DNA from: an uncultured Dehalococcoidales bacterium
GTDB taxonomy: Bacteria; Chloroflexota; Dehalococcoidia; GIF9; UBA5629
DNA: 64,000 bases
Assembly: GCA_964437795.1 (NCBI GenBank)
Contig: CAYTIC010000008.1
Span: 61,407-125,406 of the forward strand
Direction of reading: 5' to 3'
Positions 1,522-20,319 of the stretch are shown piece after piece. A model generated the notes under the pieces. That model worked only from the letters and a program-made list of their open reading frames with translations, had not been told where the DNA came from and did not search any database. The position numbers were made by a program, and so were the translations under genes. Numbering within the stretch: the stretch's first letter is position 1; the number at the start of each line of letters is the position of its first letter.

Positions 1522-1597
1522 GGGCGATTAGCTCAGCGGTTAGAGCACCTGTCTTACACACAGGGGGTCACTGGTTCAAATCCAGTATCGCCCACCA
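1522..1597 (+). tRNA. tRNA-Val (anticodon TAC). Its 3-prime 45 nt act as the att core that is repeated downstream.
   Basis: Anticodon loop CTTACAC, T-loop GGTTCAAATCC, and CCA encoded. The stretch from the anticodon loop to the 3-prime end recurs at 14761, 16941 and 18648. Confidence 0.85.
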
Positions 1598-1703
1598 TCC
1601 ACAAAAAACCCTGACCGATGCCTTTCTTCCTCACCGCGTTTTGTATATGTAAGTTTCAGCTGGAGCGTCAAGGAAAGCGTCAGAGATATTGGATAATCTA
1701 GTA

Positions 1704-2636
1704 TCATTGCAGTAATCGTGTCACAAGTGCAGCACTCGCCACGATGCCCAACACTGAGCATGCCCCCGGTAGTCCAACTAAGTACGCCAGTCCGTAAGGG
1801 CCCAAATCAACACCAGCAGAACAATTGGCAACTCCCAGCATAGCAAGCGTTCCTAGCAACATAGCGAAGAAAAGGAAACCCACAGTAAAATAGAACCTAG
1901 GAAGAACTAGCTCTCTGAATCTTTTTATGCGTTCTGCCTCGAATATCCACGGGGATTTCTGAATCTCATTGTGTAGCGCGATCAAAGACGAGGATTGGTT
2001 TTCATAAACTGCATCGGTATCAAGTGCATTTACTATCCGATCGATAACACTATCCATTTCCAATATAAGTTTAGATGGCTGAGCAAAATATGTTTCCCAC
2101 GTTTTTATTGCAGCTTCTTTTGTTGTCTTGTCGATATTGTAAAGTGGCTGTGTCTGCCATTTTCTTAAGTAACGAGGAGGATACTTGGAGGTATTATAAT
2201 GCGAGGCAAGCTCCTTAATCGCCCATAGCTTTCCTAACATTATCCTGTTTTCTTTTGCCTGCTTATCTTTCTTTTTCTCTATCTTCTCATTATTTACGAT
2301 TATCAACCATTTATTATAGAAAACATCCAATCGCACTTGATCTAGCCGCTGACTGCTTTCATCAAATCGTCGCATGTAGGCCTCAACTTTATCTAAAACC
2401 AGCGTTTCACGACCTGTAATGTGCTGTAACCTGAATACTGTTCCCGCTATTGAAGCCGCAAAGAATGCTGCCGCAACCTGTGTCTGGGTTCTTAAGAACC
2501 ACACGGCATTGTCTTGGCAGATATCAGGTAGCCACTTAATTGCATACACAACAAAAAAGCTGGTTACTGGGACAACGACAAGCATAATTACAGCTTCAAG
2601 CCAGTCGTTCGTCCTATCTTGCATTTGGTTCCTCAT
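1704..2636 (-). CDS. Hypothetical membrane protein with two N-terminal and two C-terminal TM helices and a coiled-coil middle.
   Basis: 310-aa ORF with hydrophobic helices at both ends. It sits 40 bp downstream of, and co-directional with, the AlpA/excisionase-like gene. Confidence 0.45.
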   Translation of the reverse strand: MRNQMQDRTNDWLEAVIMLVVVPVTSFFVVYAIKWLPDICQDNAVWFLRTQTQVAAAFFAASIAGTVFRLQHITGRETLVLDKVEAYMRRFDESSQRLDQVRLDVFYNKWLIIVNNEKIEKKKDKQAKENRIMLGKLWAIKELASHYNTSKYPPRYLRKWQTQPLYNIDKTTKEAAIKTWETYFAQPSKLILEMDSVIDRIVNALDTDAVYENQSSSLIALHNEIQKSPWIFEAERIKRFRELVLPRFYFTVGFLFFAMLLGTLAMLGVANCSAGVDLGPYGLAYLVGLPGACSVLGIVASAALVTRLLQ

Positions 2637-2678
2637 CTCTTCTTGTATCTAATTCAAGTTCATTTCTTGATCATCTGC

Positions 2679-2903
2679 TCAGTGGCTTTTTATCCATTTA
2701 ACCAGGTCATCCTTTAGAAAGACCCGTTTCTTGCCTATCTTGTGAGACGGTAAGCCAGACTCCATGAGTTTGTATATCGTCTGGTGGCTAACCCCCAGGA
2801 ACTCCTGGGCCTCAGTAAATGTAAAGAATATACGCTCTATCTTTTTATCCGGTTTAGCTCTTTTCATACTTAACCCTTTGAGATGATGGTATAATGCTGC
2901 CAA
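2679..2903 (-). CDS. Excisionase/AlpA-family helix-turn-helix DNA-binding protein (copy 1)
   Basis: RIFFTFTEAQEFLGVSHQTIYKLMESGLPSHKIGKKRVFLKDDLVKWIK matches the excisionase-family DNA-binding domain pattern. It is paralogous to 4037-4228. Confidence 0.6.
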   Translation of the reverse strand: MAALYHHLKGLSMKRAKPDKKIERIFFTFTEAQEFLGVSHQTIYKLMESGLPSHKIGKKRVFLKDDLVKWIKSH

Positions 2904-2975
2904 TCATTAGGCACAAATAGACAATTATAGATGATTATTGACAGTTAATTATAACGAGCTTAGAATTGGTTTTGC

Positions 2976-3329
2976 ATGGCAGCAAGTGCAGCAGGAAACA
3001 AAATGAAGTGCTACAACCATCCCGAGTACGATTCTGTCGCTACCTGTTTAAAGTGCAGTCAACCTATCTGCGAGATATGCTACTTGGGAGCCAGGGATCA
3101 TGCAATCTGCCGGACGTGCTGGGACAAGATCACACTGGAAGATCAACTACAGAGAAATAAAGAAAGGCAGGAGCTATTATCAAAAAGGAAAAGCGAGGAA
3201 CTTAATATCTCGCAGGTTACGGGCACAGCGCTGGCAGTGTTTGCACTGAGCCTGGTTGTTATATGCGCGAACCAAATGCTATCGATTGCGCAGAAGATGT
3301 TGAATGCTCTGAGAGCTAATGACAATTAA
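2976..3329 (+). CDS. B-box/zinc-ribbon-like small protein with a C-terminal TM helix. The start is possibly the ATG at 3003.
   Basis: Cys/His cluster CYNHPEYDSVATCLKCSQPICEICYL...HAICRTCW, followed by a hydrophobic segment. Confidence 0.35.
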   Translation: MAASAAGNKMKCYNHPEYDSVATCLKCSQPICEICYLGARDHAICRTCWDKITLEDQLQRNKERQELLSKRKSEELNISQVTGTALAVFALSLVVICANQMLSIAQKMLNALRANDN

Positions 3330-3393
3330 TGCGGGATTATATTGTTCATATAGGGGTTAGGGGGCTTGAAGCTATTTTTACATATTTAGGTAG

Positions 3394-3663
3394 TTAGCCA
3401 CGTCTTTTTTTTGATAGGGTAGCCAATATTATAAATACGAATGGCAATATAGCCGCGAAACCTACCAGATTCCATCCATCGTTGGCTGTTTGTCCAATAA
3501 CAATTGCCAGGCCCGATATGACCACAGCTCCTACAAGTCCCATTAAGGATAGCCACCCGGTATCCTGCATACTGTTGGCGATAATACGATCCTGTTTTCT
3601 CAGATGTTTCTGGATCGTTTTCAGGGATATTGGCCTACCTTTTTTCTTTTCTTTCATTTTCAT
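3394..3663 (-). CDS. Small membrane protein
   Basis: 89-aa ORF with a Lys-rich N-terminus and two hydrophobic helices. Low confidence. Confidence 0.3.
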   Translation of the reverse strand: MKMKEKKKGRPISLKTIQKHLRKQDRIIANSMQDTGWLSLMGLVGAVVISGLAIVIGQTANDGWNLVGFAAILPFVFIILATLSKKRRG

Positions 3664-4036
3664 CTCCTTGCTATTAGTCTATCTCAAACTTCAAAATAAT
3701 GCAAACATTTGTTCTATTATATAACATGAGGTGATTTTATAAACAATTTAATAGACGAGTTGAACAAAATTTTATAGAAAAAAGCTAAGCAGCCATTGTC
3801 GATGGTAAATTGGAGATGACTATTGATACTTGGACTATGATAATTTCACCACACTTTTTTGTGATGAACGTAATGAACCTAAAGATTAGAGTCGGTTGTC
3901 TTGAAATGCACATAAACAATGATTGTTATTTTGTTCCCGCCACCGCTATCACCCTTGCATCCTATCTCTGATAAAGCATCGTCTGCGGTTCTTACCTCTC
4001 ATGCGTTAGGGCATGTGTCTTGCGCCCATATGCCAA

Positions 4037-4228
4037 TTAATGTCCCTTCTTCCAGTCAGCCACATCCTCCTTCAGGAACACGATCTTCATGCCTATCCTG
4101 TGGTATGGTAGCCCGGACTTCATCAGCTTGCGCAGCATATACCTGCTGACGGACAATTGATCCATCGTCTCATTGAACGTGAAGAAAATCCGCTCTGTAC
4201 GTTTAGACCGTCCCTGTCCGTCCATCAT
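4037..4228 (-). CDS. Excisionase/AlpA-family helix-turn-helix DNA-binding protein (copy 2)
   Basis: RIFFTFNETMDQLSVSRYMLRKLMKSGLPYHRIGMKIVFLKEDVADWKK is paralogous to 2679-2903. Confidence 0.6.
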   Translation of the reverse strand: MMDGQGRSKRTERIFFTFNETMDQLSVSRYMLRKLMKSGLPYHRIGMKIVFLKEDVADWKKGH

Positions 4229-4440
4229 GTCTGACTAAAAATGGTATATGAAACGGGGATAAATGGAAAGCTACGATGAGCAATGAGATGAGGGATAGAA
4301 GCCGGGGTAGGGGTGGCCTGAATCATGGCATTAATTGTTACAAATCATAACTACCCAAATCACAAACACGGACTTGTTCCCTTCGCATATAGGGAGCATC
4401 AAGGGAAGCTTCAGGGGAAAAGGAGCTGATGCGATGAGTC

Positions 4441-4845
4441 TCAGGGACTCTTGCTCTTATGCTTGGCGTTGCCATGTCCCATGTGTTTAGATAATGGCTC
4501 TTCACATTGGTGGACGACATTTCCTGTGACGGGATCGGTTATCACTTCACTATACCAATCATGCTCCCTATCGATCACCCTGCTAAGATGCATCCACTTA
4601 TAAATCTTTCGAAACAGGTCAGCTCCTGAAACTTCTTCTATGAAGGGCTTCTTGTCACCTTGGTGCTTAGCTTTCATGCCTGCCCTAGTTGTTATTCCAA
4701 TACACACATGAGATGTGACTTTAAAATGTCTCGAGGTGGAACCACACACAGGGCAGGGAGTACGCTGACTCGGTTGGATATCGCTTCTTTCCCTCAGTAC
4801 CAAGCTGCATTTACCGCACTTCACGATTGCATTGTCGTCTGTCAC
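4441..4845 (-). CDS. Zinc-ribbon protein. It is co-transcribed downstream of the RM gene and may act as an accessory or controller.
   Basis: A CxxC...CxxC motif (KCGKCS...CPVCGS). There is a 27-bp gap after the RM ORF on the same strand. Confidence 0.4.
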   Translation of the reverse strand: MTDDNAIVKCGKCSLVLRERSDIQPSQRTPCPVCGSTSRHFKVTSHVCIGITTRAGMKAKHQGDKKPFIEEVSGADLFRKIYKWMHLSRVIDREHDWYSEVITDPVTGNVVHQCEEPLSKHMGHGNAKHKSKSP

Positions 4846-4872
4846 CGGCCTCCCATAACCTTCAGCTTCTGA

Positions 4873-7482
4873 CTAGTAGGATTCAAGCAGTTCCTTTACC
4901 TCTTCTGGTAGCGTTGTTAGACCTTCGACTTCGAGGGCTATTGCCGTGGTTCTATTCCGTAGCTGAGCTCTAGTCTGCACGGTCTCTCTTGTTTCTATGG
5001 CTATCCTCTGGCAAACCTGCGCATCTTTCGGAATCGGCAGCAACACTTCGAAAAGGCGTTTGCCCAATGTATCGATGATATCGCGTGTGAACTGCTTTGC
5101 TCTCATTTGCCGGCGGACGATGGGGGCATTCAGAAGGGCAAGCAATAGGTAGGGATCAAGCTCATCCTTTTTATTCACACGAATCTTATAGATGCCGCCG
5201 CAGTATAGTATTTTGACGTCGTGCTCCGTCAGTATGCAGGAGATGCCGACGAGATAAGTACCATCACGGACAACGAAGATGTCTTCTGCTTGCACATCTT
5301 GCTTGAGCCGATAGCTCTCGTAAAGCTCGATGCTGACATTCTGCTTGGGATCGGTCTTGAGTTCCCAATTCGAGATGTCGGAGGTGCGTATGAACGGGAT
5401 TGGCCCCGTGCCATACGCCATCTTTCCTATTTCTATTCCCGTCTTCCATGAGATGACTTTTTGTTGAACGAGGTCGGCCAAAGATATTAATTTATGCGTC
5501 GAAGCCAATGCTTCGAGATCGCTCTCCAGCTTTGGATCGTAATATTTAGGTATAAATATGTTATTTCTGATATCTTTAATGTGGTTGACAAAGCCAAGTC
5601 TATCCCGCTCCGGGTTCTTTCCATATTTGTAAATGTCGTTGAATCGCTCAGCAACGTGTGGGATATCATCCAGCAGCATCTTCCTCCCAAATTTGTCGAT
5701 ACGATATGTTGGATTTGCCCTGGAATCATGTCCACACCACTTGACGTCAGCCATGAAGATATCGTAGTTCTCTCCTCTGGTTGGTGGCGAGTTCTCAAGG
5801 AACATGACGCAGACTTTTGCATGGGTACCACCTTTGCCACTTGTCTTAAAAAGAGCCTCCGGCATGGAGACTATTCCCTTTATTTTTACGTTACGGCAAA
5901 GATAATTGACAACATATTCGTACGTTGGCATTCCAAAGACAGCTTCTGGGAGGACGATACCCATTCTGCCGCCAGGCTTCAAAAGTTGGAGGCACCTCTC
6001 GAGGAAGATGATCTGAGGTGGTTGGTCTTCATGAATTGCAGTGGTCTGGTTTATTTGTCCCGTGTCCCTATTGAGCTTCCATTTATGCCCAAGTTTATAT
6101 TGCGATAGGAGGCATTCTTCCTTCACGACGATTTTCTTCCCCATAGGAGGATTTGTCAGGAGGACATCGAATGCTCCTAATCCGACTCTCTCTTGCATCA
6201 CTGGCGGCCAATCACGCGGCAAGACAAGACTATTCTCACAAAAGACGCCGCCTCGACCATCACCTACTATTGCCATGTATGCTTTTGTCACTTTAGCGAG
6301 AAAGCTATCTTTGTCGATGCCAGTGAAATAACGTGTTGCTACTTCTACTTCCCGTTTAAACAGTTGTCGCTCGCTCCAGCCCTTTTTCTGCGCTTGTGCT
6401 TTAAGTCCAGCCCAAACGTGCTCCAGAGCCACGATCAAGAACCCACCTGATCCGCAGGCAGGATCGGCGATGCTTTCCCCAGCTTGAGGATCAAGGATGT
6501 CTACCATCATCTTTATCACGTTCCGTGGAGTGAAGAACTGCCCTTCGCTGCCTCTCAGAGCTGGTCCAATAAATACCTCAAAGGCATCTCCGACAGCGTC
6601 TCTGTCCGCTTCCATGATAGAGTAGTTCTGTAGTTCTCCGACGACATATAGGAGACTGTCTGCATCTAGTTTGATCTTCTCCTCCGGCGAGAATACATCG
6701 TCGAATGTCGCTATTTTTACCTTCTCAAATAACTCTAGGATTCGTTTTTGCACTGCTGTTGCATTCTCTCCGATCCCTGCGCGGAATTGGACCATATCCT
6801 CTGGGCCGCATGTTTGTTCGTCGAGTATCTTGCAGAACAATATGCTGATTATCTCTTGAGCCAGCGCTTCGTCACGCGTTATGCCAGTAGTCATGCCCGC
6901 GAGATGATTACGGATATCACGGAAAATCACCTTCAGATTTGACGGTTTTGTTAGGTCTTTACGTTTAAAAAGTCCGATGTCTTCTACGCGCTGCCCTTTA
7001 CGCGGAATGTTTGGTAGATCTTTCCACTCGATATGGCCGTCTGTGTGGCGTATCTTGAGTATGTAGGCGTGCTCGTGACCATTGTACCACGCACCTATGG
7101 TCGCTGGGCTCATCTCAAGATACAGCTTCAACTGGGCTATGCCATCTCGTCGATTTTTTTGCTTGCACTCCACGATCGTCGTCAGTTTCGACTCTATATG
7201 GTCAGAAGATTTGAAGACAGCTATATCAACGGGGTAGGATTTCTTTTCATCTGACGGACGCTTGCGGACGTGGAACTGAGGATGAGTCTGGATTTGGTTT
7301 TTATCGTAGCCGTAGTCTTCGACCAACCTCCGGGCGAATATCTGCACTGCTTCGATCTCCTCAGCAGTGGCCTTAGCTTCTATACCTGAGATATAATCGA
7401 TGACGTAGCCGGATTTAGGTTGCGGATCGGATTGACTGGCATCCGGGACAAGTTGGCTGACTATCTTCTTGCTACGACTCAT
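4873..7482 (-). CDS. Single-chain restriction-modification enzyme (Type IIG/IIB-like). It has an N-terminal PD-(D/E)xK nuclease-like domain (HSDR_N-like), a gamma-class N6-adenine DNA methyltransferase and a C-terminal HsdS-like target-recognition domain.
   Basis: Nuclease-like motif VDIAVF...IVECK. MTase motif I FFTPRNVIKMMVDILDPQAGESIADPACGSGGFL and motif IV TNPPMG. The C-terminal about 200 aa resemble a Type I specificity TRD. The internal ATG at 7482 (MSRSKK) is the likely start. No separate hsdR or hsdS gene is nearby. Confidence 0.65.
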   Translation of the reverse strand: MSRSKKIVSQLVPDASQSDPQPKSGYVIDYISGIEAKATAEEIEAVQIFARRLVEDYGYDKNQIQTHPQFHVRKRPSDEKKSYPVDIAVFKSSDHIESKLTTIVECKQKNRRDGIAQLKLYLEMSPATIGAWYNGHEHAYILKIRHTDGHIEWKDLPNIPRKGQRVEDIGLFKRKDLTKPSNLKVIFRDIRNHLAGMTTGITRDEALAQEIISILFCKILDEQTCGPEDMVQFRAGIGENATAVQKRILELFEKVKIATFDDVFSPEEKIKLDADSLLYVVGELQNYSIMEADRDAVGDAFEVFIGPALRGSEGQFFTPRNVIKMMVDILDPQAGESIADPACGSGGFLIVALEHVWAGLKAQAQKKGWSERQLFKREVEVATRYFTGIDKDSFLAKVTKAYMAIVGDGRGGVFCENSLVLPRDWPPVMQERVGLGAFDVLLTNPPMGKKIVVKEECLLSQYKLGHKWKLNRDTGQINQTTAIHEDQPPQIIFLERCLQLLKPGGRMGIVLPEAVFGMPTYEYVVNYLCRNVKIKGIVSMPEALFKTSGKGGTHAKVCVMFLENSPPTRGENYDIFMADVKWCGHDSRANPTYRIDKFGRKMLLDDIPHVAERFNDIYKYGKNPERDRLGFVNHIKDIRNNIFIPKYYDPKLESDLEALASTHKLISLADLVQQKVISWKTGIEIGKMAYGTGPIPFIRTSDISNWELKTDPKQNVSIELYESYRLKQDVQAEDIFVVRDGTYLVGISCILTEHDVKILYCGGIYKIRVNKKDELDPYLLLALLNAPIVRRQMRAKQFTRDIIDTLGKRLFEVLLPIPKDAQVCQRIAIETRETVQTRAQLRNRTTAIALEVEGLTTLPEEVKELLESY

Positions 7483-7871
7483 CTTTGTATATCCTAATGC
7501 CCGTCTGTTGCTACAGTCTTCTATATTTATGCACCAGTTGTCAAGCGCACTATTCCCTACATGGTGCGACAACACTGCCCTCGGTCTTCAAGACAGGGGG
7601 CACGATCAAGGGGCATGTTTGTGACGCTGGTTTGGCGATGAGGAAGTGACGGTCTTCCTGGCAAAAAACCGTCAGTAATTAAATTGGGCTGTTGATGGAC
7701 AGGTATCCTTCCTACCTGGGGTGGCCTCGATCATCGGAGGGTAGTATCTATCGCAACCATAGGCCGAGCACACACCGGGATTGCTTCCTCGAAAAAGGCG
7801 ACATAAACGCGTAGAACCGCTGGATATGCCGGGTTTAAAATGCCGATAAAATGCCGACGAGGTGAAAGATC

Positions 7872-8156
7872 GTGGAAAAAGATATAGTGTTAATCGAATG
7901 GATCGACAGCAGGGGCACGGAGAGGTGGGAATACCTCGACGAGATAGAGCCGATGCTGCCCGGCGAATGCCTTTCGGTGGGGTTCATCATCGAGGGCAAC
8001 AGCGATTATACAACAATAGCAATGGCGGTCACCGATACCCAGGTGCTTGCCCGGATGACAATACCGGCAGGCTGCATCAAAAGCGTAAAGAATCTTGGTA
8101 CTTCATCTGGCAGTAACCGCGATGCGGATAGAAAATGCCCTTATAACCGCAATTGA
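7872..8156 (+). CDS. Hypothetical protein
   Basis: A GAGGTG ribosome-binding site lies 7 nt upstream of a GTG start. No recognisable domain. Confidence 0.35.
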   Translation: MEKDIVLIEWIDSRGTERWEYLDEIEPMLPGECLSVGFIIEGNSDYTTIAMAVTDTQVLARMTIPAGCIKSVKNLGTSSGSNRDADRKCPYNRN

Positions 8157-8172
8157 CAGCAGCTACCGATAA

Positions 8173-8394
8173 TTAGTGGTTGATGTTGATGCCGTCGTTG
8201 CGGATCACGTCCATATGGCTTTCCAGCACAGCTTGCTTTTGCTCAACGGTGGTAATGCGGGCGTTCATGACATAGAAGAGGGCCAGCACCAATATGAGGG
8301 TTATGATCTGTATCACGATGCCTGCTACTCGTAGGGCAGAGAGTGTCTTCTTATCCACAGTAGCCATATTATAACTAATCAACAGCGTAGACAC
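8173..8394 (-). CDS. Small membrane protein
   Basis: 73 aa with one strong TM helix (VAGIVIQIITLILVLALFYV). Confidence 0.3.
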   Translation of the reverse strand: MSTLLISYNMATVDKKTLSALRVAGIVIQIITLILVLALFYVMNARITTVEQKQAVLESHMDVIRNDGININH

Positions 8395-8416
8395 TCAATT
8401 GGTTGTTAGTGTTAGG

Positions 8417-8437
8417 CCGTCTACACTGTCCACAGTG
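8417..8437. repeat. Inverted copy of the 9-bp GTAGACAGT-type repeat (two units)
   Basis: CTACACTGTCCACAGTG is the reverse complement of TGTGGACAGTGTAGACGG. Confidence 0.6.
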
Positions 8438-8690
8438 ACCAGCTCGCCGCAGAACTTAACGCAGTCATGTGGTGATGTCCGACCGCTGCCTTTCATGGTG
8501 GGTTGGTCGGGCCTCAACTTTTTGCGCGGATGGCACCGGTGGTGGCCAAGGCGTGGCCGGGGGCAGGGGTAGGGGTGTGGTCGGTATGGGGCGGAGCGGG
8601 TCAAGACATCCCATGCTTGCAGGGTCTTAACGCAATAACAAAAGTCCCCTTGAACCCGTATTGGAAACAAGGGGACTTTTGTCCGGTGCC

Positions 8691-8846
8691 TTATTGTTTA
8701 TTTACAAATGTCTCGCGATGGTCATCAATGCACACCAGTTACAATTCATGTCCCACCAGGCGCAGCGCTTCTGGATGCACTCTTTGTAACTTTCATCTGC
8801 TTCATCAGGTAACGCCAGTATAGCCGATGCTAATAACGGGCATACC
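8691..8846 (-). CDS. Small Cys-rich protein, 51 aa, not in the ORF track
   Basis: Hand translation gives MVCPLLASAILALPDEADESYKECIQKRCAWWDMNCNWCALMTIARHLYKQ. A GGAGGTG site lies 4 nt upstream of the ATG. Confidence 0.3.
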
Positions 8847-8897
8847 ATGTTTCACCTCCTGTATTTATTTTGTGGTTAGTAACGTATGTATAAACGT

Positions 8898-8920
8898 CGT
8901 AGACAGTGTAGACGGTGTGA
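8898..8920. repeat. Direct copies of the 9-bp GTAGACAGT-type repeat (iteron-like), immediately 3-prime of the primase-helicase gene
   Basis: GTAGACAGTGTAGACGGTGTGA. The same unit is tandemly repeated at 11654-11689. Confidence 0.6.
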
Positions 8921-8966
8921 GCGCCGTGGCGAGTGCCGCATCTTCAGCGTTCACACCACAGTCCAG

Positions 8967-10775: not shown

Positions 10776-10794
10776 TGTATGAATCTCCTTTTTA

Positions 10795-11001: not shown

Positions 11002-11209
11002 CACAATAAACCTCCTTAATAACTCGTGTTTTGATTTCAATCGACCTTTAATATTCTTAAGGCATTGACAGCACCTGCGCAGGGTGTTATGCTTGAGACA
11101 TGACGATAATACGCTATCATTGTTTATTTCTATACAACTCTCTAATAATAATTATACAGGAAGATAAATCGCGTGTCAAGAGCGAATATGAACGTGAAGT
11201 AGGAGTTTT

Positions 11210-11641
11210 ATGAAAAAAGTCATATATAGCGATGAAATGAAGTACTTTGCTCTAAGTAAGCGAAGGGAAGGATTAGGTTGGTGGGATATTAGGAGGGCGG
11301 TGCAAGATAAGTTCAAGTTAGAGCCGATTCCAACCATCCGTGCGATGCAGCGATGGGAGGAGGTTCTTAATATCGATGAGCTAAGCGAGTCTGTAGCGAA
11401 GAACCTGGATATCAAGGCTCAGGCATCAGCAAGCACTGGGATGGTTGATTTAGCTGAGACTCTGTTGCATAGCTTATGGGGGACTCGGCATTTGGGCGAA
11501 CAAGTGGAGTATGATGGATGGAAGCATTTTCTATCGACTTTAGAACGCATCTGGGGCACCGAGAAGCTACGCGGATATGTCGGGAAATATCTGGCAGAGC
11601 GTGAAGGGCAGCCTGATTATTCACCCTCGTTGCTTGAATGA
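11210..11641 (+). CDS. Hypothetical protein (island gene)
   Basis: An AGGAG site upstream of the ATG. 143 aa with no recognised domain. Confidence 0.4.
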   Translation: MKKVIYSDEMKYFALSKRREGLGWWDIRRAVQDKFKLEPIPTIRAMQRWEEVLNIDELSESVAKNLDIKAQASASTGMVDLAETLLHSLWGTRHLGEQVEYDGWKHFLSTLERIWGTEKLRGYVGKYLAEREGQPDYSPSLLE

Positions 11642-11653
11642 TATACAAACCCT

Positions 11654-11689
11654 GTAGACAGTGTAGACAGTGTAGACAGTGTGAATGAC
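11654..11689. repeat. Tandem 9-bp repeat (TGTAGACAG x3 plus a partial unit) upstream of the integrase gene. It is either iterons or recombinase arm-type sites.
   Basis: TGTAGACAGTGTAGACAGTGTAGACAGTGTGAATGA. There are additional single units at 11725-11738 and an inverted partial at 11761-11770. Confidence 0.7.
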
Positions 11690-11887
11690 ATAATGCGCCC
11701 ACGATGGAGTAACTGCCCATCTATGGTGTAGACAGCCATTTTCTGTGTGTGTGTCCATGCTGTCTATAGTGTTTATACGTCCTGCTTTCTCATCCACCAA
11801 ACCGGCTGCCCTTCGAATGCTATTTCTAAACCTTCCGCCTCGAAGTACAATGTTTTTCAAGTACGGAAAGACGCTGGAGGTTATACA

Positions 11888-13021
11888 ATGCGAGGCTATA
11901 TCAGAAAACGAGGCAAAAACTACCAGCTGACCATATGGGTAGGTAAAAAGCCCGACGGGCGACCGTCGAGGCATTTCGAAACAATACGAGGAAGCAAAGC
12001 CGATGCACAGAGGAGACTCAGGGAGCTTCTCAGCGAGATCGACCGGAACACCTACACTGCTCCCAGCCATATGACGCTTGCACAGCTTCTCGACCAGTGG
12101 CTGGATGGATATTGCCGGACCAAGTGCTCTATGCGTACACAGGACAGCTATGAGTACCTTGTCCGGTGCCACCTGGTTCCGGCTATGGGGCATATCAAGC
12201 TTGATGAGCTGCAACCGCGCATTATCCAGAACTACTATGGCAAAGCATGTGAAAATGTGTCCAATCGCACGGTCTTACATACTCATAGAGTTCTGAGTCA
12301 GGCATTGAAGTGGGCTGTGAGACAAGGGTATGCAGGCAAGAACCCCGCTGAGCTAACTGACCCGCCCACACCACTGTATAGGAACATGACCACTTTATCG
12401 TCTGCTGAGGTTAGCCTCCTGCTGGAACATGCACAGGGTAATGACTATTATCCGGTCATCTATACGGCTATCTCCACCGGGCTGAGACGAAACGAGATAC
12501 TTGGCCTACGCTGGCGAGACGTTGATCTCCTCATGGCAAGCATATCGGTCAGCCAGGTTCTGTATAAAGGCAGGGGTAGAATCGAGTTCAAAGAGCCGAA
12601 GACTGAGCACAGCAGGCGCAGGGTAGCTATGACACCCAAGCTTGCCATCTATCTGAGGGAGCATAAAGAACGGCAAGAACAGTCAATGAGGAGGCCGCTC
12701 ACTCTTGATGACCTCGTATTCAGCCACCCCGATGGCACTCCTCTTGATCCCAGCACGGTAAGCCACAGCTTCAACAAGATCGTGAAAGCAGCGGGGCTTA
12801 AGGTCAGGTTTCATGACCTCCGGCATTCCTGTGCAAGCCTAATGCTGAGAGAGGGAATCCATCCCAAGATTGTCAGTGAGATGCTGGGTCATTCGAGCGT
12901 TGCGATCACGCTAGATATATACAGCCACGTTACCCCTGGACTTCAGGAAGCCGCTGCAAAAAGCCTAAACGAAGTGCTACCTGCTGGCGTAGCGGATGCG
13001 ATGCAAAACAGCGTCAAGTAG
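11888..13021 (+). CDS. int: Tyrosine-type site-specific integrase
   Basis: GGAGG site upstream of the ATG at 11888. A core-binding/SAM-like N-terminal region. The catalytic region has HDLRHSCASLML (H-x-x-R) and the tyrosine in LDIYSHV. Confidence 0.9.
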   Translation: MRGYIRKRGKNYQLTIWVGKKPDGRPSRHFETIRGSKADAQRRLRELLSEIDRNTYTAPSHMTLAQLLDQWLDGYCRTKCSMRTQDSYEYLVRCHLVPAMGHIKLDELQPRIIQNYYGKACENVSNRTVLHTHRVLSQALKWAVRQGYAGKNPAELTDPPTPLYRNMTTLSSAEVSLLLEHAQGNDYYPVIYTAISTGLRRNEILGLRWRDVDLLMASISVSQVLYKGRGRIEFKEPKTEHSRRRVAMTPKLAIYLREHKERQEQSMRRPLTLDDLVFSHPDGTPLDPSTVSHSFNKIVKAAGLKVRFHDLRHSCASLMLREGIHPKIVSEMLGHSSVAITLDIYSHVTPGLQEAAAKSLNEVLPAGVADAMQNSVK

Positions 13022-13054
13022 CAGACACAGATAATGACATCGACCCTTAAACGG

Positions 13055-13987
13055 TTACCTTGTATCTACAGGTGTCCCTAGCATCTGTTGGCTGTTGGCT
13101 GCAAATGACGCGTACTGGCATTCATGCTGGAGAAACAGGCCCAACTGGATCAATGATATATGGTGGTTCCGCATGTCATTGGCAGTGATCACTATGGTCA
13201 GCTTGTCTGCAAACGTCTTTTCGGAGCAGGCGGCAATGAACGATTTGATCATTTCATGTATTACCTCCTCTCTGGTTTGCTTTAGGCGTCCGAAACCTGT
13301 CCCAAGCACGGGCGCAACGAGGGACTCTTTCAAACCTCGTTGCCCAACAAACACCCACAGAGAGGCAAGGGCCTGTTGCAGGTCGTCGAATGTCACTGAC
13401 GCTACTCCATATTGGTTTATGTGCGCTATTGCGACGAAATAACCTGTACGATCTTTGGGATTAAGTCGAACGCAAGTCCCTATAGGGTATCTTCTCGATT
13501 TTCCTATACGTGTTCCAGCAAGGTCTCCGCCTACCAGTCCGCTCAGACAAGCGGACAATTCGGCATCAAGCTGGGTTTCATCACCATAGAAACGTCTTGT
13601 GAAAATTCCTTGGACACTTGCCTCAGCTATCATTTCCCTCGATATCCGTGTGTCAAAAGTAGTGTTCGAACCAACGATGAAGGCCCCCGAGAATCCAAGA
13701 AGATCACCGATAGCGATCTCGATAGTTGTATCGCGGCCATTGAGCTTGTGGGATACTGTCAACTGAGGTCTCCGCATAAGTCCCGCGATAATCAAGCCAA
13801 TGAGTCCAAAGTATATCCACTGACTACGAAGCCAGTCCGGGAGCTTTGTATTAGCAAAGAAAAACGTCGTGATCTCAACGAGAAGCCACAGCGCTCCGAA
13901 GGAACTGAGTATGGCTATCAGCGTTTTCCAGGAAATGATGTTCCTAAGCCATGTGATTATCCAGTACCAGGTTCTATTAATTATCAT
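13055..13987 (-). CDS. 2TM plus macro-like-domain protein, similar to ThsA of Thoeris type II
   Basis: Two N-terminal TM helices, then a domain carrying FIVGSNTTFDT and APVLGTGFGRL segments that resemble macro-domain motifs. It overlaps the upstream TIR gene by 4 bp. Confidence 0.45.
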   Translation of the reverse strand: MIINRTWYWIITWLRNIISWKTLIAILSSFGALWLLVEITTFFFANTKLPDWLRSQWIYFGLIGLIIAGLMRRPQLTVSHKLNGRDTTIEIAIGDLLGFSGAFIVGSNTTFDTRISREMIAEASVQGIFTRRFYGDETQLDAELSACLSGLVGGDLAGTRIGKSRRYPIGTCVRLNPKDRTGYFVAIAHINQYGVASVTFDDLQQALASLWVFVGQRGLKESLVAPVLGTGFGRLKQTREEVIHEMIKSFIAACSEKTFADKLTIVITANDMRNHHISLIQLGLFLQHECQYASFAANSQQMLGTPVDTR

Positions 13988-14487
13988 AGTCCCAAACGTG
14001 TGTATACTTCAGGTTTATAGTAGAATGGCCCGGTTTTACCTTCCTTACGGTAGGTTTCGTCACTGCTTGGCCAATTATCAAGAGCATATTGCATGATTGC
14101 TGCATTAAATGGTATATGAACCGCTAAAGCTTCTTTTGCCAAGGTCGGGCAACGTTCCTCATCCATTGCACGTTGCCCGTTAAGGTTCACTACTATTATG
14201 GGTAGAGTCCTAGATATGGCCTGTTCTATCTCCCATCTTACAAATTTCATGAGGTAACGAGTCCGCTCACCTGCTAATAAAATAAAGATTTTGGAATTCC
14301 GCATTCGCTCGGCCAATTGAGCTTTTACGGATGCTTCCTGACTCGAGTCTCTAGCTGTGTTAAGGTCGTGAGCATTATAGAAATTGAAGTCTATGCCGTC
14401 ATTTTGTTTCCATGCTTGCATAAGCCGATAATATGCCATGTCTATATCACCGTCGAACGAGACAAAAGTTTTATTACGGTACGGCAT
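13984..14487 (-). CDS. TIR-like (DUF1863/MTH538-type) domain protein, similar to ThsB
   Basis: An AGGAGG site 7 nt upstream of the ATG at 14487. KTFVSFDGDIDMAYYRLMQAW...FNFYNAHD...IFILLAGERT...FVRWEIEQA...LPIIVVNL fits the TIR-like fold with a conserved Glu. Confidence 0.6.
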   Translation of the reverse strand: MPYRNKTFVSFDGDIDMAYYRLMQAWKQNDGIDFNFYNAHDLNTARDSSQEASVKAQLAERMRNSKIFILLAGERTRYLMKFVRWEIEQAISRTLPIIVVNLNGQRAMDEERCPTLAKEALAVHIPFNAAIMQYALDNWPSSDETYRKEGKTGPFYYKPEVYTRLGL

Positions 14488-14691
14488 TATAATTGACCTC
14501 CTGAAGGATTTTGGTTGCGCTATCAAAGAAGTAATAGAAACATATAAATTTTGCTAATGCAGTCAGTGGGTTAAACCCATGCGCCCGCCAATTTGTCATG
14601 CCTCCAATGAAGTGCATGCGATTATTATAATACAGAATTATGTCGCATAGATAGCTCGCCAGAGTATTTGTATCTATTTGAAGCTCAAGCG

Positions 14692-14807
14692 TCAAACGAG
14701 CGCCAACCGGAAGTAGCCTCATATTGAGGTGCATGTAAGTGTATAGAAGTCGCTGATCTCTTACACACAGGGGGTCGCTGGTTCAAATCCAGCATCGCCC
14801 ACCATCC
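14692..14807 (+). repeat. 116-bp direct repeat whose 3-prime 45 nt are a copy of the tRNA-Val(TAC) 3-prime end (att-like site, copy 2)
   Basis: TCTTACACACAGGGGGTCGCTGGTTCAAATCCAGCATCGCCCACCATCC differs from tRNA-Val 1553-1600 at two positions. The upstream 70 nt are shared with copy 3. Confidence 0.8.
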
Positions 14808-14930
14808 CTGTTCTCCGATCGTGCCCAGAAAAGTCGTTACTTGATGGGTGAGGTATATGCAGGTGTTATGAAGAGCGTCATGGAAAGCGGCAGGGGAAAA
14901 GAATGGCAAGGCAGTTGGTAATGATGAAAA

Positions 14931-15608
14931 TTATCCGCGGAAGTCGGTTGATAGGAAACGTTCTATTCCATCGATCATATCTATGACCACTTCTTTGGTG
15001 TATTCGTCGAATTTTCCATGAGCTGCTGAATTACCGATATCTAGCCATGCTTGAATAAAACGCCACTGCGGTTGAGGGTACTTGTCTAGTTTTTTCAACT
15101 CATCATTTAGTGCTGATGCTTTTTGTTCAGCATCAATGTTTTCGCTTCGTGCTAACCGTTTGAGCGTATCTTCCAGTACAGTTCTAGCAAGAACAGCAGC
15201 AGGGTCTTTATATCCGTTTTGAGCCAGGTGCTTTGCTTGCTCCAAGATGGAATCAAAAAGGTCTCCAGCTATGATAAACTCCTGCCCGAGCAAATACCCA
15301 TTTTCTAGATCTGATAAAGCACCCTGTAATAAACCAACGAATTCGTAGACCTGGGAAGCAACTTCGATGCTTTTGGCCCCATCTTTTGGTATCAACTCTT
15401 CAAGATGATGGAATTGGGGGCTTTGTCTCCCAAATACCAGCTCAATAATATTTCGCGTACTGGCTAACCAACCGTGAAGTCTGACTTTGTCTTCACCTTG
15501 TATGTAACGAAAACCGTCAGATGTCTTTTCAAGTTTTGCTATAGTCTTGCCCTCAATGACCAACTCATTAAGCCGATCTGCATATCTCCGGTTTTTCATA
15601 CTAAGCAT
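14931..15608 (-). CDS. DUF4145-like domain protein (tentative), a candidate defence-associated protein
   Basis: The C-terminal region ...LARTVLEDTLKRL...WLDIGNSAAHGKFDE... resembles DUF4145, a domain seen fused to restriction enzymes. Confidence 0.4.
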   Translation of the reverse strand: MLSMKNRRYADRLNELVIEGKTIAKLEKTSDGFRYIQGEDKVRLHGWLASTRNIIELVFGRQSPQFHHLEELIPKDGAKSIEVASQVYEFVGLLQGALSDLENGYLLGQEFIIAGDLFDSILEQAKHLAQNGYKDPAAVLARTVLEDTLKRLARSENIDAEQKASALNDELKKLDKYPQPQWRFIQAWLDIGNSAAHGKFDEYTKEVVIDMIDGIERFLSTDFRG

Positions 15609-15748
15609 TTATTCTCCCCAGCTGATCTCCATTTCCAGGATAGGCATGATTTCAAAGCCTATGCACGGCTAGTGTTCTTTGATCCATTTTATCAGGTTTT
15701 CTTTCAGAAAAACTCGTTTTTTCAAAGGAAAAAATCTTCAAGGTGTTC

Positions 15749-16864
15749 CTATTGTATCTTCATTTTTCGCCCCTTCAAATGGTGCCAGTCTTGGTTAAGA
15801 AGCGCTCCGTATGCCAAAGGATTATGCTGAAATTGTAAGCGATTTTTCCTGCGGTAAATAGAGCGTGAGATAGCTGCTGGGATAGATGCAACGCCAACCC
15901 CCATAGTAATTGGTTCATTAGCTTGAATTCCCACCATCAATGAACCGCTACCTATTATAATTGGGAAGATATCTAAGAGTATTATGTCATGCCATGTTTC
16001 TTTCATATGAGTCGAAATATACTCAATTTCCTGATTCAATTCTTGAATAGTTAATTCTCTTTTTTCGTCACGATCCTTTCGATCAATTAGATTAGCCAGA
16101 TCAATAGATAATCCTTCAATATGGTCACGAAACCGGGCAAGTTCAGCATGATGTTTCCCCTTGAATTTTAAAATCTTACTTAGGCTCAGTTCATCCTTGG
16201 GAAAGGGCATTATGTATTTCAGTATTTCATTTCTCTGGTCAGTACGTTCCCCAACTGATTTTCTATTTCCACCTAGCAGACGAAAACAGGTTTTATTATT
16301 GGTGACAGGAGCACTATCGACTTCAGGAAGGCTACCGATATAAGTAGCAAGATATGTCATGAAAGCATCGGCTACCCATCTATCCATTTCATACCATGGG
16401 TAATCGGTGCTGACCGCTAAATTCATACGTACCAGTTCATCGGCAACAGAACTAAGCTTCTCGGCATGCACAGGGAACCTTTGAGATGCATTCTCTGTGA
16501 TCGGATTTCTTCGACTTTTAATTCTTCTCCTAATGAATTCTATAAAAGGTTTGCCAAACTCATCAGCATTATCAATGAGTTTATGAGGCTCTATGAAGTC
16601 AACTAGTCCTTCCTTCTTGAGTGTGGACATGTGTGGTAGCAGTCTCCGGCGATCATAAGCACACTCAGAAGGTACTATAGAACTTAACCGGTCCCAGTAT
16701 AATAGCATTAGATATAACCAGTCATTATCTGGAAGATTAATATACGGAAAATACAAAGCCTTAGTTCTCATCTCGTTACTGCCTCCGTAGATTAGCCGTT
16801 GCTTAGAAAATATTCTATCTGTTAATTCTTCGTATAGGGTAGTTCCATGTTTCACTATTGTCAA
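15749..16864 (-). CDS. Hypothetical 371-aa protein with no recognisable domain, upstream partner of the DUF4145-like gene
   Basis: Long ORF on the same strand, 140 bp upstream of 14931-15608, lying between att-like repeats 2 and 3. Confidence 0.4.
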   Translation of the reverse strand: MTIVKHGTTLYEELTDRIFSKQRLIYGGSNEMRTKALYFPYINLPDNDWLYLMLLYWDRLSSIVPSECAYDRRRLLPHMSTLKKEGLVDFIEPHKLIDNADEFGKPFIEFIRRRIKSRRNPITENASQRFPVHAEKLSSVADELVRMNLAVSTDYPWYEMDRWVADAFMTYLATYIGSLPEVDSAPVTNNKTCFRLLGGNRKSVGERTDQRNEILKYIMPFPKDELSLSKILKFKGKHHAELARFRDHIEGLSIDLANLIDRKDRDEKRELTIQELNQEIEYISTHMKETWHDIILLDIFPIIIGSGSLMVGIQANEPITMGVGVASIPAAISRSIYRRKNRLQFQHNPLAYGALLNQDWHHLKGRKMKIQ

Positions 16865-16876
16865 CTGCCTCCAAAA

Positions 16877-16991
16877 TCAAACGAGCGCCAACCGGAAGTT
16901 GCCTCATATAAAGGTGTAAGCAGCTACATAGTAGTCGCTGATCTCTTACACACAGGGTGTCACTGGTTCAAATCCAGTATCGCCCACCATC
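16877..16991 (+). repeat. Copy 3 of the 115-bp direct repeat ending in the tRNA-Val(TAC) 3-prime end (att-like)
   Basis: About 88% identical to 14692-14807. It ends ...GTCACTGGTTCAAATCCAGTATCGCCCACCATC. Confidence 0.8.
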
Positions 16992-17170
16992 TAAAAACAA
17001 AATGTCTCAAGTGAATCCTTCCTGTATGCGCTGTGTACATCATCGTTTTACCGGGGGCTTAAGAGGAAATAGTCATGTTGGTAATATCTGATACCAATGT
17101 AAATAATAGATAGCTCCCCAGCTCAACGATGAATAACCGGGGAGCTATTTACCGGATGTTCTTTGACAAA

Positions 17171-18283
17171 CTATAAATGGTTCTTGGGGCTATGCTTGAG
17201 CTCTTTTACTAACTTGGCTACCTTTTTCCATCTGAGTTTTTCATACTGACGCGTGCTGTGCTCCTCCCTTGATGCAAGGTAGCTTACCTCCTTTTGTAAT
17301 TTCCTGTAGCTTTCCAATCTGGATGGGTCAAAATCACCTTGATCGATAGCTGCTTTTACAGCGCAGCCGGATTCGAGGTTGTGGCTGCAATCGCTGAAGC
17401 GGCATCTTTTAGCCAGTGTCTCGATGTCGTGAAAGGCAGCTTGCAGATCTTCTTCTCCTGCCCACATCTGGATCTCTCTCATACCCGGTGTATCGATTAC
17501 CATGCCACCGCCGGGAAGAATGATGAGTTCGCGTTTGGTCGTAGTATGTCGCCCCATGCGGTCATCTTCGCGAACTTCTCCAATCTGCTGTTTCTCTATA
17601 CCAAGCAGGGCATTGATGAGCGCCGACTTCCCAACTCCGGAAGATCCCAGAAAAGCGGCTGTTTTCCCTCTGTTCAGGTAATTTTTAAGGGCATCTAACC
17701 CGATACGTTCCTTGGCGCTGACAGGATGAACTGATATACCAGGAGCAATAGTTTCAATGCTATGGGTATAGATATCAATATCCGTACACAGGTCCACCTT
17801 ATTGAGGACGATTACCGGAGTGGCTCCACTATTCCATGCAAGCGTAAGATACCGCTCAATCCTGCGAAGATTGAAATTTCTGCCGCCGTCCAGACCACTG
17901 ACAATGAAAACTGTGTCTATATTAGCTGAGACGATCTGTTCTTCGGTACGTGCGCCAGCGACTTTTCTGGAAAATTTACTCTTTCTGGGTAGCAAGGCAT
18001 GAATTGTGCATTTCTGTTCATTGATTAATGGTTTAATTACAACCCAATCACCGACAGCCGGATATTGTTTTTCAGCCTTGGCAAGGTGTCGCATTTTGCC
18101 CGTAACCCCAGCAGTTAATTCCCCATATTGACTGTATACCTGAAAAGCACCCTTAAATTCAGAAATGACTCTGGCAGGTACCGAATCGGGGATTTTCAAG
18201 GCGTGGAAGTTTTTCTGAAAAAACGAATCCCATCCAATATCCTGGAGGCTTATTGGCCGGGCATAATTTGAATTTATACTCAA
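17171..18283 (-). CDS. rsgA: Ribosome small-subunit-dependent GTPase A (YjeQ)
   Basis: OB-fold N-terminus, circularly permuted GTPase motifs (LNKVDL, GSSGVGKSALINAL, DTPG) and a C-terminal zinc finger CRFSDCSHNLESGC. Confidence 0.8.
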   Translation of the reverse strand: MSINSNYARPISLQDIGWDSFFQKNFHALKIPDSVPARVISEFKGAFQVYSQYGELTAGVTGKMRHLAKAEKQYPAVGDWVVIKPLINEQKCTIHALLPRKSKFSRKVAGARTEEQIVSANIDTVFIVSGLDGGRNFNLRRIERYLTLAWNSGATPVIVLNKVDLCTDIDIYTHSIETIAPGISVHPVSAKERIGLDALKNYLNRGKTAAFLGSSGVGKSALINALLGIEKQQIGEVREDDRMGRHTTTKRELIILPGGGMVIDTPGMREIQMWAGEEDLQAAFHDIETLAKRCRFSDCSHNLESGCAVKAAIDQGDFDPSRLESYRKLQKEVSYLASREEHSTRQYEKLRWKKVAKLVKELKHSPKNHL

Positions 18284-18586
18284 TTCTTTCTCCTTTTCGA
18301 AAGTAAGGTAATCAAGACTTTATCAGGCGATAAAGAAGCAACGGATTAACACCCCGCGGCTAACCTTGTCTTACTTCCTAATCAAGAGAAAAACAAAAAA
18401 GCCGTTCCCTTTGGAACAGCTAATAGTTCACTCATTCAAAACAGGAATATGGTATTTAGCTGGAAACCCGCAGGGGTGCGATATCCGCAGTTATTACGAT
18501 GGCAAGCATCAACAATCCTCCTTTATATTTATTCTATTGAAAATACTATCATTACTGTCCCGCGAATTCAAACTAATATTGATTGG

Positions 18587-18632
18587 AAATGTAAAGAATA
18601 TACGCTCGATCTTTTTATCCGGTCCAGCTCCC
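18587..18632 (-). pseudogene. Fragment of an excisionase/AlpA-like gene covering the 5-prime end only. It is a remnant of a further integrated element.
   Basis: AAATGTAAAGAATATACGCTCGATCTTTTTATCCGGT is about 90% identical to the 5-prime end of the gene at 2816-2860. No intact ORF. Confidence 0.5.
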
Positions 18633-18647
18633 TATTGTAATGATAGC

Positions 18648-18677
18648 CTGGTTCAAATCCAGTATCGCCCACCATCC
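18648..18677 (+). repeat. Copy 4: the last 30 nt of tRNA-Val(TAC) (att-like fragment)
   Basis: CTGGTTCAAATCCAGTATCGCCCACCATCC is identical to 1571-1600. Confidence 0.75.
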
Positions 18678-20287: not shown

Positions 20288-20319
20288 TTAAACTGATTTA
20301 TAGTTAATGGGGCGTATCT

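Follow-up and report, generated by a model that had tools for sequence, protein, structure and literature searches.

A tandem array of att-bounded segments at a tRNA-Val(TAC) gene in an uncultured Dehalococcoidales bacterium

In the genome of an uncultured Dehalococcoidales bacterium (GenBank assembly GCA_964437795.1, contig CAYTIC010000008.1), we have analysed a stretch of 64,000 nucleotides, positions 61,407 to 125,406 and referred to here as the window, in which a tRNA-Val(TAC) gene is followed by three displaced copies of its 3' part that delimit three consecutive segments of DNA, denoted A, B and C. This arrangement is, with good probability, a tandem array generated by successive site-specific integrations of one element family at the anticodon loop of the tRNA gene, with segment A constituting a complete integrative element of 13 kb, segment B an internally deleted sibling and segment C an older segment with a decayed left end. 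The original prediction, made from the sequence alone, had described nested or tandem integrative-element segments at a tRNA hotspot; the segments are arranged in tandem and are not nested.

As an integration hotspot the locus is ordinary and belongs to a kind that is well known; it is occupied by an uncharacterised family of elements from the Dehalococcoidia, and current understanding of integrative elements is unchanged by the result. It provides a clean and well-bounded example of the growth of a tRNA island in an uncultured, genome-streamlined lineage, where a complete element stands ahead of its own decayed predecessors. Moreover, the comparisons described below define an attachment (att) architecture for the family, with an anticodon-loop core and paired arm repeats, together with three cargo slots, and these can be used to find further elements and to mine defence and accessory genes in Dehalococcoidia metagenomes.

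The tRNA target, the att copies and their arms

The boundaries of the array are as follows, P and P' denoting the non-tRNA arms to the left and right of the att copies.

1522-1597, + strand: intact tRNA-Val(TAC), attL of element A (ARAGORN; Rfam tRNA, 74 bits)
1598-1690, + strand: P' arm at the left end of element A, with AGCGTCA-N6-AGCGTCA at 1664-1682 (homologues: right flank of att2, metagenome P' arms)
1598-14758: segment A, complete integrative element of 13 kb, three cargo slots and backbone
14686-14758, + strand: P arm at the right end of element A, with AGCGTCA-N4-AGCGCCA at 14688-14705 (relatives' P arms, paired motif)
14759-14807, + strand: att2, displaced tRNA-Val 3' half whose T stem has a compensatory G-C allele (sequence match)
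14808-16943: segment B, with P' arm, DUF4145, alpA stub, DUF6236 and P arm (Pfam, P arm alignment)
16944-16990, + strand: att3, displaced tRNA-Val 3' half with one mismatch (sequence match)
16991-18586 (18647 if extended to att4): segment C, decayed P'-like left end and rsgA
18648-18678, + strand: att4, a 31-nucleotide (nt) copy, 100% identical, that starts at the T arm, extends 4 nt beyond the 3' end and lacks a left arm (BLAST)

The target gene is the last of a tRNA cluster, Val(CAC)-Leu-Arg-Val(TAC), at 1271-1597, of which the first three genes occupy 1271-1514; ARAGORN and Rfam agree on the cluster, and an Rfam search over 1-26000 detected nothing except the tRNAs. Four matches to a 25-nt core taken from the tRNA-Val(TAC) 3' part, GGTTCAAATCCAGTATCGCCCACCA, are present on the + strand (1573, 14780, 16965 and 18650), none with more than one mismatch. 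The core has no match in 100 shuffled sequences, and a relaxed search of the window revealed no fifth copy even when 6-8 mismatches were permitted. BLAST aligned 1552-1600 with 14759-14807 (49 nt, 96%), 1552-1608 with 16944-17000 (57 nt, 93%) and 1571-1601 with 18648-18678 (31 nt, 100%). The recurrence of the tRNA 3' part as four direct repeats, as originally proposed, is therefore borne out and their positions had been given to within about 3 nt, copy 3 being about 3 nt off, but copy 4 extends for 31 nt from the T arm rather than the 45 nt assumed. Copies 2 and 3 had also been claimed to share about 70 bp of non-tRNA sequence and they do share 115 nt at 88% identity (14692-14806 and 16877-16991), of which about 67 nt, on the left, are non-tRNA. 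The regions between the att copies are AT-richer than their surroundings, again as predicted, with GC contents of 0.38-0.50 as against 0.52-0.55 in the flanks.

For att2 and att3, identity to the tRNA gene sets in at 1550-1552, within the anticodon loop, and ends a few nucleotides beyond the CCA, and on this sequence pattern the sites belong to the anticodon-centred class of tRNA sites, with 1551-1557 of the anticodon loop as the presumed crossover region. Both mismatches in att2 result from a compensatory change from A-U to G-C in the T stem, and the same G-C allele occurs in the intact tRNA-Val genes of four comparison loci (L117, L123, L127 and L138; L numbers denote comparison loci throughout). 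Because the allele at L117 precedes an element that also carries the DUF4145 gene of segment B, the tRNA 3' half appears to travel with the element on its right. This is what a crossover upstream of the T arm would produce, and the tRNA-Val 3' half now at about 1550-1597 would itself be element-derived.

A conserved non-tRNA P arm lies to the left of att2 and att3, and a P' arm lies to the right of the tRNA gene's own copy (att1), att2 and att3, although at att3 it is decayed. Within each arm there is a pair of direct AGCG(T/C)CA repeats whose starts are separated by 10-13 nt; the pair is located about 50-70 nt to the left of the anticodon loop in the P arm and about 110-130 nt to its right in the P' arm. 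The paired motif occurs three times in the window, at 1664 in the P' arm of att1 and, on the two sides of att2, at 14688 in the P arm and at 14874 in the P' arm, against 0.025 occurrences expected from shuffles. The P arm of element A is 85-89% identical to those of L169, L114, L129 and L141. The same layout, of two repeats spaced by 11 nt, recurs in relatives with a clade-specific sequence, AACGCCAA in L006, L007 and L010 and AGCGTCA in L008, L164 and L168. We interpret the paired repeats as putative arm-type binding sites for integrase or excisionase; no Pfam arm-binding domain was called in the integrase of element A. The repeats of the P' arm are intact at att1, carry one mismatch at att2 and are degenerate at att3, a stepwise decay which fits with the newest element adjoining the tRNA gene.

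These features can be accommodated in a simple scheme. The attP of the family would consist of a non-tRNA P arm, a 7-nt overlap in the anticodon loop and a P' arm headed by a copy of the tRNA 3' half, such that each integration would rebuild the tRNA gene and push the earlier 3' half, with everything behind it, downstream. An integrase of the lambda type of tyrosine recombinase would bind the core and the paired AGCG(T/C)CA arm repeats, with the AlpA/HTH_17 proteins as likely directionality factors.

The original prediction had named as one refutation a family of tRNA pseudogenes unrelated to integration. Such a family, or one of tRNA duplications, has only the bare repeats in its favour, and every copy is a terminal 3' fragment in the same orientation and lies at a boundary of composition and gene content. 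Moreover, the copies are flanked by conserved arms with paired repeats and coincide with the presence and absence of segments among relatives. The arms and the distribution in relatives both contradict this explanation, which we consider extremely improbable.

Contents of segments A, B and C

Genes for mobility had been anticipated between the repeats; they are present in segment A and absent from B and C. The two AlpA paralogues, the PrimPol-helicase and the tyrosine integrase of the original prediction were all recovered by domain searches in segment A, where the main backbone genes are:

2679-2903, - strand: alpA1, HTH_17 excisionase- or regulator-like gene, with a likely start at ATG 2867 (Pfam HTH_17, 2.5e-12; PHROG excisionase families)
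2976-3329, + strand: zf117, Cys-rich 117-aa backbone protein, 80% identical and syntenic in L117 and L146
4037-4228, - strand: alpA2, second HTH_17-like paralogue, 56% identical to alpA1
8967-10775, - strand: replication protein with PrimPol, PriCT_1, AAA_25 (RepA/DnaB-like ATPase) and a C-terminal winged helix (Pfam)
11210-11641, + strand: u143, conserved integrase partner, also present in L169; its counterparts beside the integrase of L164, L167 and L168 are 42-45% identical
11888-13021, + strand: tyrosine integrase of 377 aa (Pfam Phage_integrase, SAM_3)

The true start of the integrase gene is probably at 11888, and the 377-aa protein is identical to an integrase on record (P0001). Its translation contains motifs, assigned by eye, which we take to correspond to the catalytic residues of tyrosine recombinases. 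The nearest relatives with solved structures include 6emy and 6emz, deposited as 'Int protein', and an integrase scan across species-representative genomes puts the host with metagenome-assembled genomes (MAGs) of Dehalococcoidia/Dehalococcoidales. The integrase is tied to this att site by L169, which is collinear with 11010-12988 of the window, encodes an integrase 92% identical to that of segment A and shows the order u143, integrase, a 226-aa membrane protein, P arm and tRNA-Val 3' half. This layout also reveals a cargo slot, occupied in L169 by the single membrane protein and in the window by a Thoeris system.

A complete sibling of element A could be reconstructed from L117 and L164, which overlap over 5996 nt at 100% identity. 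It extends for 15.7 kb and is bounded by an intact tRNA-Val gene and a 46-nt copy of its 3' half. Its genes follow the order DUF4145 (as left-end cargo), alpA1, zf117, alpA2, a restriction-modification gene (41% identical to the slot 2 gene of the window), u94 (97%), replication protein, HTH_17, u143-like and integrase (68%), and this gene order shows segment A to be one element rather than two. Identities to the window for alpA1 (86-92%) and alpA2 (84-86%, syntenic) are high in both L117 and L146. Segment A had also been considered as two fused elements (1598-4290 and 4330-14758), in view of an arm-site-like motif at 4394, the two alpA genes and a GC step; this division was rejected because L117 and L146 both retain the order alpA1, zf117, alpA2, restriction-modification gene and u94 within one element.

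Segment B contains two genes and lacks an integrase, although both arms are retained and it is flanked by att2 and att3. Its features are:

14874-14892: paired sites of the P' arm
14931-15608, - strand: DUF4145 gene (Pfam)
15670-15722: alpA 3' stub of about 50 nt, similar to 2688-2745
15749-16864, - strand: DUF6236 gene (Pfam)
16877-16943: P arm with one site decayed (P arm alignment)

The L117 locus matches 14759-15723 at 78% identity, from att2 through DUF4145, and where the match stops, within the alpA stub, L117 runs on into a full alpA1 gene, which identifies segment B as an internally deleted sibling.

Segment C carries a single gene:

17171-18283, - strand: rsgA (NCBIfam TIGR00157, 171.7 bits against a cut-off of 100)
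18587-18630, - strand: internal alpA fragment of 44 nt, cut on both sides, 93% identical to alpA1 at 2817-2860

The product of rsgA is a ribosome-biogenesis GTPase of housekeeping type, and segment C thus contributes nothing to the defence cargo of the original prediction. In the relatives L129, L139 and L114, rsgA is likewise kept in an att-flanked segment of low GC content. The 44-nt alpA fragment is absent from L129 and L139 and may be the scar of a lost element.

Relatives with and without the segments and the likely order of integration

A metagenome scan with a 46-nt att pattern yielded 66 loci, in which a wide variety of unrelated sequences stands behind one and the same tRNA-Arg/tRNA-Val pair. 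Arrays of two or three copies on one contig are present in L114 with L146, in L105/L128/L145 and in L135, L136 and L141, and the partial att copies of L114, L136, L141 and L145 carry a P arm of the window type. The tRNA-Val core had no match in the first 83 loci collected as integrase relatives, which use other tRNAs.

The most informative loci derive from close relatives of the host, L139 and L129, whose STAS proteins are 92-96% identical to that of the window and whose flanks match at about 90% nucleotide identity. Segments A and B are absent from both. In L139 the intact tRNA-Val gene is followed directly by segment C and then by a 34-nt att copy, while L129 carries a different decayed element and a P arm, followed by segment C between two att copies. 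Segment C of the window is 88% identical, at the nucleotide level, to the DNA directly behind the intact tRNA-Val of L139 and behind the att copy of L129, and in both loci an equivalent of att4, 33-36 nt in length, follows rsgA. Since close relatives without A and B also have segment C at this tRNA gene, the segment is old and fixed. Apparently empty tRNA-Val sites, which the original prediction had suggested looking for, were encountered in related metagenome contigs, followed by metabolic genes: the flank after the last att copy of L139 resembles the flank directly behind the tRNA gene in the L098 group (flavodoxin and aldo-keto-reductase genes), an arrangement which probably represents the empty-site state. 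The proposal of repeated integration at one tRNA gene is therefore upheld by the attP-type arms at the repeats, by sibling elements at the same tRNA and by relatives without A and B.

In the sequence of events that we favour, segment C would have been the first to integrate and would have lost its P arm, with the 15-20 nt at the start of its repeat, by deletion before the lineages of the window, L129 and L139 diverged. Segment B would have followed and later lost everything between alpA and its right-end cargo, leaving an att-flanked mini-island devoid of an integrase, and segment A, the only complete copy, would be the newest. With arms intact on both sides and the catalytic motifs of the integrase visible, element A is probably still excisable by recombination between att1 and att2. 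Perhaps its integrase could also move segment B, either in trans or together with A, in the manner of cis-mobilizable elements (CIMEs), whose sequence hallmarks, a neighbour's att sites and an absence of recombination and transfer genes, segment B displays.

A number of observations sit less comfortably with successive integrations of a single family. The att4 repeat begins at the T arm and lacks a P arm, and its origin from the same family is deduced solely from the P'-like left end of segment C. The rsgA gene is an odd gene to find in an island. In siblings with integrases 68-70% identical to that of the window the integrase gene is inverted, and thus the arrangement is not uniform across the family, although L004, L005 and L169 are collinear with the window in this respect. 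Logan short-read contigs carrying the right-flank genes (L084 and L085) end at 18649/18648, the start of the 31-nt exact repeat, and give no junction information on excision or a circular form; these ends are probably an assembly break at the repeat, assuming k = 31, rather than variation. Lastly, one genome does not fix the order and number of the integration events, whether separate or with A and B together.

The last of these points bears on the possibility that A and B, or all three segments, arrived as one composite, through recombination of the outermost att sites in a previous host by accretion and cis-mobilization. A segment such as B, retaining both arms and lacking an integrase, is the configuration described for CIME or accretion arrays (PMC3146451), and L129 and L139, which lack both A and B, do not separate the two in time. 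However, segment C stands alone behind the tRNA gene in L139 and so predates A and B, and the gradient of arm-site decay, together with the distinct T-stem allele of att2, is in better accord with different ages or sources for A and B. A composite arrival therefore seems to us distinctly unlikely.

The shortened att4 raises a different possibility, that it was left by another class of integrase crossing over in the T loop and that the array combines two unrelated element families. In the window, L129 and L139 alike, this copy comprises 31-36 nt, with the T arm as its starting point and without a P arm, and other element types do use this tRNA gene. Nevertheless, segment C has at its left end a decayed P' arm belonging to the same family, and a single deletion that removed the P arm together with the initial 15-20 nt of the repeat, before the three loci diverged, would suffice. 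A T-loop integrase for att4 is less parsimonious than this deletion and we regard it as unlikely, if somewhat less so than composite arrival, and continue to favour successive integrations of one family.

Cargo, further backbone features and known systems

Between the genes listed above, element A carries the following further features.

1704-2636, - strand: cargo slot 1, 310-aa membrane protein (u310)
4229-4422: contains the conserved region upstream of alpA2 (4294-4372) and an arm-site-like motif (4394-4422, motif family D6)
4441-7575, - strand: cargo slot 2, 134-aa protein (4441-4845) and 900-aa protein (4873-7575)
7577-8670: backbone, comprising conserved non-coding DNA (7577-7790), u94 (7872-8156, +), u73 (8173-8394, -) and u91 (8395-8670, -)
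8899-8918, + strand: two copies of the 9-nt repeat GTAGACAGT, downstream of the PrimPol gene (TRF, regex search)
10795-11040, - strand: u81, HTH-like by eye only
11653-11682, + strand: 9-nt repeats TGTAGACAG, 3.3 copies of GTAGACAGT type, between u143 and the integrase gene (TRF score 60)
13055-14526, - strand: cargo slot 3, Thoeris, with ThsA (Macro, 13055-13987) and ThsB (TIR, 13984-14526) (Pfam, PADLOC)

The contents of the cargo slots are exchanged among siblings. Slot 1, occupied in the window by u310, holds DUF4145 in L117 and something else in L146. In slot 2 the 900-aa protein combines HSDR_N-type nuclease-like, N6-methyltransferase and S-like domains in one chain (Pfam HSDR_N_2 and N6_Mtase; PADLOC MTase_II and mad2), its best NCBIfam match being MAD2 at 370 bits, below the cut-off of 720, whereas in the L117/L164 sibling this position is taken by another restriction-modification gene, 41% identical, together with further genes. 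The ThsA and ThsB genes of slot 3 are adjacent, as is characteristic of Thoeris, with a 4-nt overlap, and are well supported by Pfam (ThsA_Macro, 4.6e-43; ThsB_TIR, 4.1e-19) and PADLOC (ThsA, 7e-62; ThsB, 1e-77). The defence cargo of the original prediction is thus present in segment A, as Thoeris and a restriction-modification-like enzyme. It is established for these two alone because no match was obtained for u134, DUF4145, DUF6236 or the small backbone open reading frames (ORFs) in PADLOC, PHROGs or NCBIfam, nor for u310 in these or in Pfam.

The backbone region 7577-8670 is kept in L004, L005, L073, L117, L129, L152, L156, L164 and L168, and the PrimPol gene adjoins the integrase gene in L004, L005, L008, L036 and L168. 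The region 4294-4372 is 83-91% identical in L117, L146 and L073 and is probably a shared promoter or operator region. In L073, where the identity is 91% (1946-2023, 2737-2766), the initial 30 nt are present in two copies, one on either side of a gene homologous to that for the 134-aa cargo protein. The 'iteron ori' of the original prediction corresponds to genuine 9-nt repeats, as detected by TRF, for which an iteron-type origin and an operator are both candidate roles; in the position of the 11653-11682 set, similar repeats, direct and inverted, are found in L169, and they are absent from L004.

Among known systems, the closest analogues, as judged from gene content and att layout, are the tycheposons of Prochlorococcus and the CIME or accretion arrays. 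Tycheposons also combine a tyrosine integrase, an excisionase-like gene, a primase/helicase and cargo, integrate at tRNA genes leaving partial tRNA copies, and accumulate degraded remnants as newer elements push older ones deeper into the island (bioRxiv 10.1101/2020.12.28.424599). The likeness is one of architecture only: the present elements occur in Chloroflexota/Dehalococcoidia, their cargo is mostly defence-like whereas that of tycheposons serves nutrient acquisition, and no capsid or terS variants were seen. The ssrA islands of Dehalococcoides, from the same class, are also arranged in tandem behind one small-RNA gene with direct repeats of its 3' end, and some of them lack an integration module and have been proposed to be cis-mobilizable (PMC3146451). 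However, their recombinase is the serine enzyme DsiB, their repeat, of 20 bp, is situated close to the T loop of the tmRNA and their cargo is rdhA (PMC3146451), in contrast to the tyrosine integrase, anticodon-loop site in tRNA-Val, PrimPol module and defence cargo found here, and the array is not an ssrA genomic island in the sense of a DsiB module at an ssrA target.

Anticodon-centred islands of the type catalogued in the Islander database, where the anticodon-loop class accounts for 2083 of 3919 islands (PMC4383910), similarly consist of an intact tRNA gene and a displaced, co-oriented terminal fragment with an integrase gene between them. Behind its intact tRNA gene the window has three 3' fragments, all on the strand of that gene, but a tyrosine integrase gene is enclosed in segment A and not in B or C, so that two of the three segments would fall outside a scheme that requires an integrase for each island; arrays of three or more are rare there, with 4 cases (PMC4383910).

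Likeness to P4-like satellites and phage-inducible chromosomal islands (PICIs), or to integrative mobilizable elements (IMEs), had also been suggested. Element A shares with the former an integrase, an AlpA-like regulator, a primase-helicase, a size of about 10-15 kb and integration at a tRNA gene, and a stronger proposal would be that it is a phage satellite of P4/PICI type, induced by a helper and packaged in its capsids, with the array arising by satellite re-integration. Integrases related to that of element A occur in real phages, both in L094 (with terminase) and in L091 (with head, portal and terminase genes at the same tRNA), and several small backbone ORFs are without an assigned function. 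A tailed prophage with major head, portal, terminase and ParA-like genes lies directly behind an identical tRNA-Val(TAC) in L088/L091/L155 (IMGVR_UViG_3300028156_000007), its 392-aa integrase gene being convergent with the tRNA and its product 40% identical to the integrase of element A, and helper phages therefore exist in the lineage. Against this, searches of Pfam, PHROGs and NCBIfam detected no terminase, capsid, capsid-redirecting or relaxase families in the whole array and, for the ORFs of segment A, no terS or other terminase small subunit, capsid-size-redirection, Sid/Psu/Delta-like, Ppi/Cpm or cos-related gene; relaxase, coupling-protein and type IV secretion system families were likewise absent from Pfam and NCBIfam results. 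In addition, close siblings of element A reside in ordinary genome and metagenome contigs. The genes shared with satellites are real, but neither a P4/PICI nor an IME class is established given that packaging, capsid-redirecting and relaxase genes were not found, and we judge a packaged satellite to be quite improbable. No feature of element A marks it as a satellite, and its present-day mobility and cell-to-cell transfer are both presumed.

A broader and more tentative view, which we consider possible though rather short of probable, is that segment A represents an undescribed, Dehalococcoidia-wide family of self-replicating (PrimPol-helicase) integrative elements, tycheposon-like in character, in which three modular cargo slots would shuttle defence genes and an integrase clade would re-target the anticodon loops of different tRNAs, with mimicry of either the 3' half or the 5' half (L006, L009 and L010) and with occasional integrase flips.

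The closest integrase relatives at other tRNA genes (Trp, Thr and Arg; 54-61% identity) show duplication of the tRNA 5' half up to the anticodon loop (L006, 9-56/11189-11236; L009, 4017-4053/12398-12434; L010, 615-655/11209-11249; L073, 79-117). In these relatives the integrase gene lies just upstream of the intact tRNA gene, implying that attP mimics the 5' half, a type that accounts for 159 of the 3919 islands in the Islander database (PMC4383910). The integrase gene and about 70 nt upstream of it (window 11818-12988) are inverted relative to the backbone and att sites in L164 (8518-9697), L167 (2580-3759) and L168 (9937-11112).

Exact-protein look-ups with the integrase (424-aa and 377-aa forms and P0001) and with the 129-aa tail protein found no contig. 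The tail in question follows att4:

18679-20319: variable low-GC tail, GC 0.38, with a DUF4118 fragment, a cupin gene and a 129-aa membrane protein (Pfam)
18901-19239: KdpD-like DUF4118 fragment (Pfam)
19400-19714, - strand: cupin gene (Pfam)

The 112-aa ORF at 18901-19239 comprises only the membrane DUF4118 part of KdpD-type sensor kinases and lies in the lowest-GC stretch (0.38). Among relatives, L129 lacks 18679-19399 (720 nt) and L139 has 7 kb of other DNA at this position, and the conserved chromosome resumes at 20320 with a STAS/PP2C gene.

Two further observations concern more distant loci. The same decayed junction is present in L129 (2741-2992), L152 (2197-2457) and L156 (6321-6685), where a region of the 7577-7684 type is separated by 15-80 nt from the remains of an integrase C terminus (corresponding to window 12773-12988), which points either to a single deletion derivative passed on by descent or to a breakpoint used repeatedly. 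Finally, an Archaeoglobus MAG (L015; 5677-6807 and 14837-15307) encodes an integrase and a PrimPol protein that are 38% and 32% identical, respectively, to those of the window, a hint that the pairing of integrase with PrimPol crosses domains.

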